From a virus (lineage: Duplodnaviria > Heunggongvirae > Uroviricota > Caudoviricetes), in the IMG/VR virus record IMGVR_UViG_2534682139_000014, positions 1 to 10,498 of that record: 10,498 bases of DNA. One strand, given 5' to 3'. The position numbers and the translations under genes were made by a program. Each line of letters starts with the position of its first letter. The first letter of the stretch is position 1. Under the pieces are notes generated by a model. That model was not told where the DNA came from. It searched no databases and saw only the letters and a program-made list of their open reading frames with translations. Shown piece after piece: positions 1,647 through 2,960 of the stretch.

Positions 1647-2960
1647 TCATTCTCCTGTTCTGCCTGTATCACTGCCCACTTCATCAAGCCCCTTAACATC
1701 CTGCCACGGCCCGTCACCAAACCTGACCTGCAAATGCTGAAAAAAACCCTGAACCCGTGTGGCATCTTTGGGGTCAAGAAAGGTCAGTCCGGTGATGAGC
1801 GCACCATCTGTATCCGGGAACCAGCCATGGCTGTTTGTCTCAATAATGTTTCCCGGCCCCAGACGAAAACGGATTTGTGTCTCCCCCGGGTCGCCCTTCG
1901 GTCCCTGAGGTCCGGTTGCCCCCACCGGGCCAGCCGCACCTGTTTCTCCTTTCGGTCCCTGTGGGCCTGCCGGGCCTGCCGCACCGGTATCTCCCTTTGG
2001 ACCCTGTGGACCTGCATTTCCCGTCAGACCGGTCTCTCCCCGCTCTCCCCTGTCACCTTTCGGCCCCTGCGGGCCTGCCGGACCAGCATCACCTGCCGGT
2101 CCCCGTTCGCCGGTTGCCCCGACAGGGCCGGTGTCACCGCGCTCTCCCTTATCACCCTTCGGCCCCTGAGGACCCGCGGGCCCCTGTTCCCCCTTTGGCC
2201 CGGGAGGTCCCACCACGGTGGGGATTCGGTTTACGGCCTCTTCCGCCGCTATCCTGCTTTGTTCCGCTGACTGTGCGCTTTCTGCTGACTCCCGGGCTTT
2301 TTCTGTTGCGGTCGTTGCATCCCTGGCTGCATTACCGGCTGCACTTTCTGCCGTCTTTCTTGACAATTCAGCTTCTGCTGCACTTTGTAATGACTCACTG
2401 GCTTTTTGAGCGGCCGCAGAGGCCGAGGACGAGGACGCCTCCTCTGACTGCTTTGCAGCGGCTGCACTTTCTGCCGCCTGCCGGGCTGACTCCGATGCAT
2501 CCTCTGCTGAAGTATCAGCATTTGCGGCGCTCGCTTCCGCCTTACTGGCTGATATGCCGGCATTCCTCGCGGACGTCTCTGCTTCTCCGGCATTCTTCTT
2601 CGCCTCCTCTGCGTGACGCGCTGCTTCTTCCACCATCAGTTCAAAACGACGCAGTGCCTCCGGACGGACGTCATCCTCCGACATGGCACCGAGAAAATCA
2701 TTCAGCGTCCCCGGTTGAGAATCTTCATACACGGTGATGGTCCCGGCATGTGACGGCGGGAATCCTTCCACCAACAGAATGACGCTGTACTGACCGTACT
2801 CAACGTCCATGCTGTAACGACCGGCTTCATCCGGATTTTCAGAGGCCACCGTGTTCACCACCACCGTGCTGCTGGTCCGTCTGGCTTTCAGTTGAATGGT
2901 ACAGTTCTCTACCGGTTTTCCTGTGCCGTCTTTCAGTACACCTGAAATCTTTACTGCCAT
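1647..2960 (-). CDS. Side tail fibre protein, lambda Stf-like N-terminus with collagen-like Gly-X-Y repeat region (437 aa)
   Basis: N-terminus [26 protein letters not shown]... closely resembles the lambda Stf N-terminal domain as recalled. Followed by an Ala/Ser/Glu-rich segment, 36 uninterrupted G-X-Y triplets (nt ~1884-2210) and a short C-terminal domain. ATG at 2960 preferred over the in-frame GTG at 2966; GGGGTG SD upstream. Confidence 0.85.

Follow-up and report, generated by a model that had tools for sequence, protein, structure and literature searches.

Here, we provide evidence from sequence comparison that a gene in a stretch of viral DNA of 10,498 nucleotides (Caudoviricetes; IMG/VR record IMGVR_UViG_2534682139_000014, positions 1 to 10,498; hereafter the window) very probably encodes an intact EPclA, the already characterised, collagen-containing side tail fibre of lambda-like prophages in pathogenic E. 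coli. Ghosh et al. described and named EPclA, the EHEC prophage collagen-like protein A, in 2012 and characterised it biochemically, with ECs2717 as its representative (PMC3368898). The fibre of the window aligns with ECs_2717, encoded by prophage Sp14 of E. coli O157:H7 Sakai, end to end and free of gaps, with 423 of 437 residues identical (97%). Five of the 14 substitutions lie in the C-terminal domain, PfC, and the PfC differences include G370/N371, D382, D395, and A399. Members of EPclA have a PF08400 N-terminus (PfN), an Ala/Ser-rich heptad segment (PCoil), an uninterrupted collagen run (Col) of 111 residues, a PF06820 C-terminus (PfC), and more than 90% identity to the O157 copies, all of which were found in the protein studied here. 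Its domain order and lengths are those of EPclA as well (437 / 116-117 / 111 / 76 aa for the whole protein, PCoil, Col, and PfC, respectively), and proteins of 437 aa with a PCoil of 116 and a Col of 111 residues are listed for most lambdoid prophages of O157:H7 EDL933 and Sakai (Table 2 of PMC3368898). The coding DNA is 100% identical to a gene annotated WP_000268934.1, 'prophage tail fiber N-terminal domain-containing protein', and is present at 100% identity in several O103/O121 genomes. Recombinant EPclA is a trimer with the shape of a hinged dumbbell, 55-62 nm long (PMC3368898), and the 97% identity suggests that the fibre of the window would likewise be a dumbbell-shaped trimer with a triple helix and a coiled coil.

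Matches to positions 1300-3000 of the window were found in 4799 of 5426 complete E. coli genomes, at up to 18 places per genome, and in 693 complete E. coli genomes this part is covered to at least 80% by a match. The fibre gene and the 89-aa gene downstream of it are present at a coverage of at least 80% in 135 phage records, many of them from Stx1a- or Stx2a-converting phages, long-tailed ones included. As a discovery the locus carries little weight, since the family has been known since 2012 and resides in hundreds of E. coli genomes and in Stx phages.

The fibre ORF extends over 1647..2966 on the minus strand, and the ATG at 2960 was chosen as the sensible start (Table 1); both the fibre gene and the 89-aa gene are intact in the window. 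Pfam matches to PF08400 (phage_tail_N), PF01391 (Collagen), and PF06820 (Phage_fiber_C), together with the alignments, bear out the anatomy given in the preliminary description of this DNA, i.e., a docking domain like that of Stf, then a spacer and a collagen run, and a small domain at the C-terminus, the last of which was put at about 75 residues and is 76 aa long with a match to PF06820. The label 'short tail fibre' used there was loose, as the homology with lambda Stf marks the protein as a side tail fibre, with a length of ~55-62 nm for the recombinant form. Long antisense ORFs over the repeat, already suspected to be spurious, are indeed present on the plus strand (1485-2270, 261 aa; 1877-2737, 286 aa), and the collagen-coding DNA is free of stop codons in two of the three plus-strand frames. 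A Pfam scan of these two ORFs and of 2249-2593 and 1784-2017 on the minus strand gave no match, and we reject the antisense and alternative-frame ORFs as genes and ascribe them to the high G+C content and the scarcity of stop codons in the repeat DNA. An Rfam scan of the whole window gave no family at gathering score.

Table 1. Features of the fibre locus and its surroundings, with positions in the window; a dot marks a feature assigned to neither strand.
Feature	Position	Strand	Basis or remark
Side tail fibre gene, very probably of EPclA type	1647..2960	-	ATG at 2960 (MAVKISG...), 437 aa + stop codon
PfN, aa 1-133, collar/docking domain and first helical turns	2562..2960	-	PF08400, E=6.3e-69
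PCoil, aa 134-250 (117 aa), predicted trimeric coiled-coil shaft	2211..2561	-	composition and 3.5-residue periodicity
Col, aa 251-361, predicted collagen triple-helix shaft	1878..2210	-	script count; Pfam Collagen, E=3.8e-18
PfC, aa 362-437, C-terminal trimerisation domain, presumed distal tip	1650..1877	-	PF06820 at aa 363-426, E=3.2e-35
Shine-Dalgarno-like AGGAG, 6 nt 5' of the ATG of the 89-aa gene, within the last fibre codons	1652..1656	-	direct sequence reading
89-aa gene, 27-aa N-terminal extension and stand-alone PfC (phrog_576)	1376..1645	-	PF06820 at aa 28-89, E=2e-35
G+C-rich hairpin with A5/T5 flanks, between the 89-aa gene (-) and the EspF-repeat effector gene (+)	1334..1364	.	fold
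EspF-repeat effector gene (TccP-like)	499-1251	+	opposite strand to the tail operon
ORF corresponding to a stretch annotated as EspV pseudogene fragment in a matching genome	1-183	+	opposite strand to the tail operon

Residues 1-128 of the fibre are 82% identical to lambda Stf (orf-401), and residues 1-93 match the collar domain of Ur-lambda Stf (chain 'Tail fiber protein', PDB 9e7m/9mgh; E=1.9e-51), in line with the earlier view that the first ~100 residues resemble lambda Stf. The similarity to lambda ends abruptly at about residues 120-128, and the alignment with orf-401 holds nothing significant past residue 128 of the fibre. Residues 1-94 of Ur-lambda Stf consist of a six-stranded beta sheet and a helix; 12 such collar domains form a collar where the last gpV ring meets the gpM ring, and each of the four trimeric side fibres is joined via flexible linkers to three of them (PMC12617516). 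One of these two docking partners, gpM, is encoded in the window and is 80% identical to lambda M. It is reasonable to suppose that EPclA-type fibres dock as lambda Stf does, at the gpV/gpM junction.

PCoil is composed of 33% A, 19% S, 14% E, and only 7% L, I, and V together, and has a dominant period of 3.5 residues, the observed power of which was reached by none of 1000 shuffles. While the segment was correctly seen as rich in Ala, Ser, and Glu, the term 'low-complexity' is not apt, as its heptad periodicity points to a trimeric heptad-repeat coiled coil instead. The coiled coil of EPclA has been shown experimentally, and the recombinant PCoil is ~16 nm long (PMC3368898). Col is one uninterrupted (G-X-Y)n run of 37 triplets, or 111 residues, as counted by script, with GDP-GET as its final triplets. 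Previously given as 36 triplets and 108 residues at 1884..2210, the run and its limit at 2210 stand, but one triplet too few had been counted and the coordinates missed two codons. Thirty-seven glycines in perfect register cannot be explained by chance. Pro occupies 18 of the 37 X positions, and the G+C content of the Col-coding stretch is 71% versus 56% for the whole window. The Gly-X-Y region of EPclA is a true collagen triple helix as determined by CD, with a Tm of 42 C and free of hydroxyproline, and the recombinant Col is ~30 nm long (PMC3368898).

In EPclA, PfC serves as a trimerisation module that re-nucleates the collagen triple helix after melting (PMC3368898). The folding of collagen helices starts at a C-terminal nucleus and proceeds to the N-terminus (PMC11923368), which is consistent with PfC as the nucleus. 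The PfC family is narrow. A profile built from 12 PfC sequences retrieved nothing credible from all PDB sequences (the top match was an optineurin coiled-coil peptide, E=0.013), and a profile search of 1.84 billion cluster representatives returned only 95 matches, mainly to short proteins. AlphaFold2 monomer models of the C-terminal 98 aa of the fibre (24-sequence alignment) and of the 89-aa protein (18-sequence alignment) had a mean pLDDT of 49.5 and 52.5, respectively, and both PfC domains tend towards all-beta models of low confidence. Receptor binding by PfC is presumed from its distal position. The domain is near-invariant across the family (91-100% identical among the homologues analysed) and ranks with its best-conserved parts; such constancy is unusual for a receptor-binding tip. 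The related lateral fibres of phage lambda_2B8 do not recognise BamA according to a passage of the phi24B preprint that cites Kuznetsov et al. 2025.

The 89-aa gene begins with an ATG 1 nt past the fibre TGA, an arrangement found at all analysed loci with an upstream fibre reading frame. Its product is 93% identical to Sakai ECs_2716, and its PfC is 32% identical to that of the fibre itself; PF06820 is its sole Pfam match at E<=0.01, with none to the Tfa family. Pooled pairwise dN/dS, a rough estimate from closely related and recombining sequences, is ~0.09 for the 89-aa gene (0.075 for its PfC part), compared with 0.27 for PfC and 0.12 for PfN of the fibre, and argues for a translated, constrained product under purifying selection. 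The gene in this position switches together with the C-terminus of the fibre, i.e., a gene for a Gp38_N-domain protein is found in EPclD loci and tfa in lambda. It is tempting to propose, if only tentatively, that the 89-aa protein is a dedicated partner of the fibre tip, such as a cap, a co-adhesin, or a trimerisation template, in a role like that of Tfa or Gp38. Such a role is made plausible by the low dN/dS, the fixed 1-nt junction, the Shine-Dalgarno-like motif of its own, and the change in concert with the fibre C-terminus. It is weakened because the homologue ORF68 was deleted in Sp5, a short-tailed Stx2 phage, and proved non-essential (Mondal et al. 2016, PMC5155283); the same authors suggested that ORF68 is perhaps an intragenomic reservoir for tail-fibre variation. 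If the proposal holds true, the 89-aa protein would represent a type of fibre accessory not characterised before, made from a duplicate of the tip domain of the fibre itself. Downstream of the gene, positions 1325-1376 fold on the minus strand with -22.7 kcal/mol (z=-4.3; as stable in none of 200 shuffles), and the hairpin within this region probably acts as a bidirectional intrinsic terminator.

A run of seven T (1740-1746, minus strand) lies inside the fibre PfC, and the frame of the 89-aa gene is open upstream to this run. Two database proteins (P0009, P0010) are exact fusions of the fibre and the 89-aa protein. We nevertheless reject a programmed frameshift that fuses the two products, as the T run varies from 3 to 8 across alleles, in several of which the alternative frame already meets a stop 13 codons upstream. 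Mondal et al. likewise did not find a frameshift signal (PMC5155283).

The window covers the distal end of a tail operon of lambda type, the genes of which all lie on the minus strand in the order H (C-terminus of the tape-measure protein), M, L, K, I, J, Lom, fibre, and 89-aa gene. Among public records it is closest to chromosomes of E. coli O103:H2, O121, and related strains, with 99.4-99.9% identity over the whole window and 100% over 1300-3000. Compared with the intact gpJ of NZ_CP031908 and NZ_CP168987, J has a 1-bp deletion in a T run (window 5019-5022, minus strand) that splits it into ORFs of 726 and 424 aa. Either J is truly inactivated by this deletion, or a homopolymer was misread in sequencing; in the former case, the prophage would probably be unable to form infectious tails by itself. 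The fibre gene could then be an unused passenger of a J-defective prophage and serve only as material for complementation or recombination with the other lambdoid prophages of the cell. Apart from the base missing from J, this would agree with the state of Sakai Sp14, in which both J and the tape-measure gene are split, and with the frameshifts in several fibre copies among 80 IMG/VR loci that were retrieved with the 89-aa protein. However, the fibre gene and the 89-aa gene are intact, their DNA is 100% identical to that of relatives with an intact J, and a difference of a single base in a homopolymer could stem from sequencing. We consider a mere passenger doubtful, albeit a serious alternative, and one that concerns the use of the gene in a single strain and not the identity of its product as EPclA.

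The chimeric or mosaic nature that the preliminary description ascribed to the fibre did not hold up for the present copy. An end-to-end alignment with one characterised fibre family, named beforehand as the outcome that speaks against mosaicism, is what the 97% gap-free match to ECs_2717 of EPclA provides. Among the 120 best homologues of the fibre, which were taken into the analysis of modularity, the collagen run starts at residue 187, 209, 223, or 250 and numbers 4, 5, 8, 9, 14-16, 19-21, 25, 26, 32, or 36-38 triplets, and despite this variation PfN and PfC are 91-100% identical to those of the window. Some relatives in Shigella and E. coli (EPclD) have a Peptidase_S74 C-terminus of 134 aa instead of PfC. 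The collagen-coding DNA of the window holds internal direct repeats of 45 nt and 99 nt, which offer a ready route to in-frame changes in length. The assertion that collagen repeats are prone to recombination holds for the family, with its range of 4 to 38 triplets, but does not extend to mosaicism of this copy. Altered receptor specificity is at odds with a tip that ranks among the best-conserved regions of these fibres and remains constant while the length of the shaft varies; comparing the C-terminal domains of prophages within one genome, as had been suggested, revealed differences of only 1-5 residues in PfC.

It is very improbable, therefore, that the present copy is a newly formed chimera in which a Stf N-terminus was placed on an unrelated collagen and C-terminal module, probably with a change in specificity. 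The abrupt end of the similarity to lambda Stf, the module swaps and large changes in triplet number at the family level, and the direct repeats in the collagen DNA would all be expected of such a chimera. They are outweighed by the gap-free alignment over the whole length, the identical coding DNA in several genomes, the close agreement of PfC among prophages of the same genome, and the frequency of the exact 437-aa form with 37 triplets, which is present in 40 of the 66 IMG/VR loci with a readable collagen run. The Stf-like part was joined to the rest long ago, at a junction common to the whole family. As judged from these alignments, the family is modular and the present copy, an EPclA, is not a new chimera.

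Collagen-like proteins are also known from bacterial surfaces. Scl1/Scl2 of S. pyogenes and BclA of B. anthracis likewise have an unhydroxylated Gly-X-Y triple helix with a globular trimerisation domain as nucleus, and in these proteins, as in the fibre of the window, the helix would owe its stability to charged residues and to Pro at the X positions. They are, however, cell- or spore-surface proteins with anchors of their own and other globular domains, and the likeness is confined to the repeat. A role as a bacterial collagen-like adhesin or virulence factor directed at an animal host, in the manner of the LPXTG-anchored Scl1/Scl2, and not as a phage structural protein is hardly credible: despite weak NCBIfam matches to Scl2/SclB, Lcl, and SclA, the neighbouring type III effector genes (EspF-repeat/TccP-like protein), and a possible bacterial role left open by Ghosh et al. 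(PMC3368898), the matches fall mostly within the collagen repeat and the spacer rich in Ala and Ser, with scores far under the cut-offs (SclB 91 bits versus 325, SclA 59 versus 400), the N-terminus is a phage collar domain, the gene follows J and lom on the same strand of the tail operon, and reported expression is tied to phage induction (PMC3368898).

With the fibre taken as EPclA, we infer how it might work, from docking to receptor binding by PfC and any contribution of the 89-aa protein. The gene would serve a lambda-like prophage, with a long, non-contractile tail, of an attaching-and-effacing or Shiga-toxigenic E. coli. [quoted passage not shown] By analogy with lambda Stf, each fibre would contribute three collar domains to a 12-membered ring around the gpV/gpM junction, so that a virion carries four fibres. 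The distal PfC knob, possibly with the 89-aa protein, is presumed to make the first, reversible contact with the cell surface and in this way would accelerate adsorption ahead of receptor engagement by the central fibre J. EPclA-type fibres probably help lambdoid prophages with genes for Shiga toxin and type III effectors to adsorb to new hosts. In the window, a TccP-like effector gene adjoins the fibre locus.

The locus shares its gene order with Sakai Sp14, i.e., espJ, tccP, and then ECs_2716 (89 aa), ECs_2717 (fibre), lom, and J. The two prophages differ in their position, beside a tRNA-Ser gene next to the hya operon here (O103/O121-type strains) and next to serU for Sp14, and in the effector gene, which is shorter here, TccP-related with EspF repeats, and has an N-terminal part unlike that of Sp14. 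Compared with lambda, the fibre is 82% identical to Stf over its N-terminal collar domain and first helical turns, the gene is likewise located downstream of lom, and the docking site and the stoichiometry of four fibres are presumably common to both. The remainder of lambda Stf (orf-401 + orf-314) comprises a long proximal rod and a hinge as well as a gp37-like distal domain and a tip that binds OmpC, whereas the fibre of the window continues past about residue 120 with an Ala/Ser coiled coil, a collagen helix, and the 76-aa PfC; a distal part of Stf type (Pf2 repeats, gp37-like domain, OmpC tip) was found in it neither by the alignment with lambda Stf nor by the Pfam search, which gave no match to PF03406. 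Lambda Stf furthermore requires the chaperone Tfa, encoded downstream (orf-194, 'tail fiber assembly'), in the place that is taken here by the 89-aa PfC-only gene.

Within the collagen-like fibres, EPclD is 92-93% identical to the fibre of the window over PfN and PCoil, with a collagen run of 9-38 triplets, but ends in a 134-aa Peptidase_S74 domain (PF13884) and is followed by a gene for a Gp38_N-domain protein. EPclB of short-tailed Stx2 phages (933W L0121, Sp5 ORF67/ECs1228, phi24B gp61) likewise combines a PfN-like N-terminus, a coiled coil, collagen, and PfC, and is followed, as here, by an 89-aa PfC polypeptide (Sp5 ORF68). It has been located at the tail of Sp5 by immuno-EM (PMC5155283) and forms the six lateral fibres of phi24B (phi24B preprint). 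Unlike the fibre of the window, EPclB is 645 aa long, has two collagen domains split by a Pf2 repeat, and is mounted as six lateral fibres on the tail adaptor of a podovirus.

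The tail fibre gene is followed directly by a small gene whose 89-aa product repeats the C-terminal PfC domain of the fibre as a separate protein (PF06820; features are collected in the table below). The two PfC domains share 32% identity, and the downstream gene possesses a Shine-Dalgarno sequence of its own. Purifying selection seems to act on this gene, whose dN/dS ratio is ~0.09. Its homologue in the short-tailed Stx2 phage Sp5 is non-essential (PMC5155283).

Features of the fibre region, its flanks and the Shigella loci used for comparison
Feature	Position	Strand	Context
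60-aa ORF	1-183	+	adjoins tRNA-Ser gene at prophage end
EspF-repeat protein gene, 250 aa	499-1251	+	four PF04806 repeat matches
Strong G+C-rich hairpin, A5/T5 flanks	1334-1364		between convergent 89-aa gene and effector gene
89-aa gene, stand-alone second PfC domain	1376-1645	-	directly after fibre gene
T7 homopolymer	1740-1746	-	within fibre PfC coding region
Terminator-like hairpin with T run	2977-2998	-	between lom and fibre gene start
J (host-specificity gene), split	ORFs 5012-7192 and 3717-4991; lesion 5019-5022	-
Gp38_N-domain protein gene, 170 aa	L086-L089, 4322-4834	+	downstream of fibre in Shigella prophage loci

Loss of one T from the T7 run shifts reading into the frame of the 89-aa gene, which is open upstream as an extension, and exact fusions of this kind between fibre and 89-aa protein were represented by two database proteins, P0009 and P0010. 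Neither the run nor the open frame is conserved, as both vary between alleles; the fusions are therefore probably the result of mutation or sequencing error, and programmed frameshifting at the run is disfavoured on the same grounds. A further database protein, P0182 (95 aa), has collagen triplets joined straight onto the 89-aa protein's PfC domain ('...GERGPADILESDENG...') and looks like the product of a deletion or recombination between the fibre collagen region and the downstream gene. The J gene is interrupted at a T run by a 1-bp deletion, as judged against the closest genomes, in which gpJ is intact at 3477 bp; either the prophage is defective or the homopolymer was misread in sequencing.

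Two hairpins lie on either side of the fibre gene and the 89-aa gene. The one beyond the 89-aa gene (-22.7 kcal/mol, z=-4.3) is a probable bidirectional terminator; it was absent from the list of the consensus scan. The other, which is terminator-like, precedes the fibre gene; fibre expression would in that case need read-through, which is what lambda-type late-gene antitermination would be expected to provide.

The gene convergent to the fibre operon is prophage cargo and encodes, judged from its sequence, a type III effector related to TccP. Its repeats are 96% identical to those of TccP/EspFU from E. coli O157:H7 Sakai, and overall identity is only ~63% because the N-terminal part differs. 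The terminal 60-aa ORF had no Pfam match; in a matching genome, this position is annotated as a fragment of an 'EspV' pseudogene with both ends missing.

The ORFs that run antisense to the fibre gene, which had no family match, resemble the situation in phage lambda (NC_001416), where the 'hypothetical protein' orf206b (5148-5768, minus strand of locus L002) is annotated antisense to the N-terminal half of stf (orf-401). The fibres of four Shigella prophages share the N-terminal PfN domain, PCoil coiled coil and collagen part with the fibre studied here, whereas their C-terminus is a Peptidase_S74 domain. Their downstream gene encodes a Gp38_N-domain protein, next to which a small DUF4376 ORF follows in three of the four loci. 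Fibre tip and downstream gene seem, from these sequence comparisons, to be exchanged as a single cassette.
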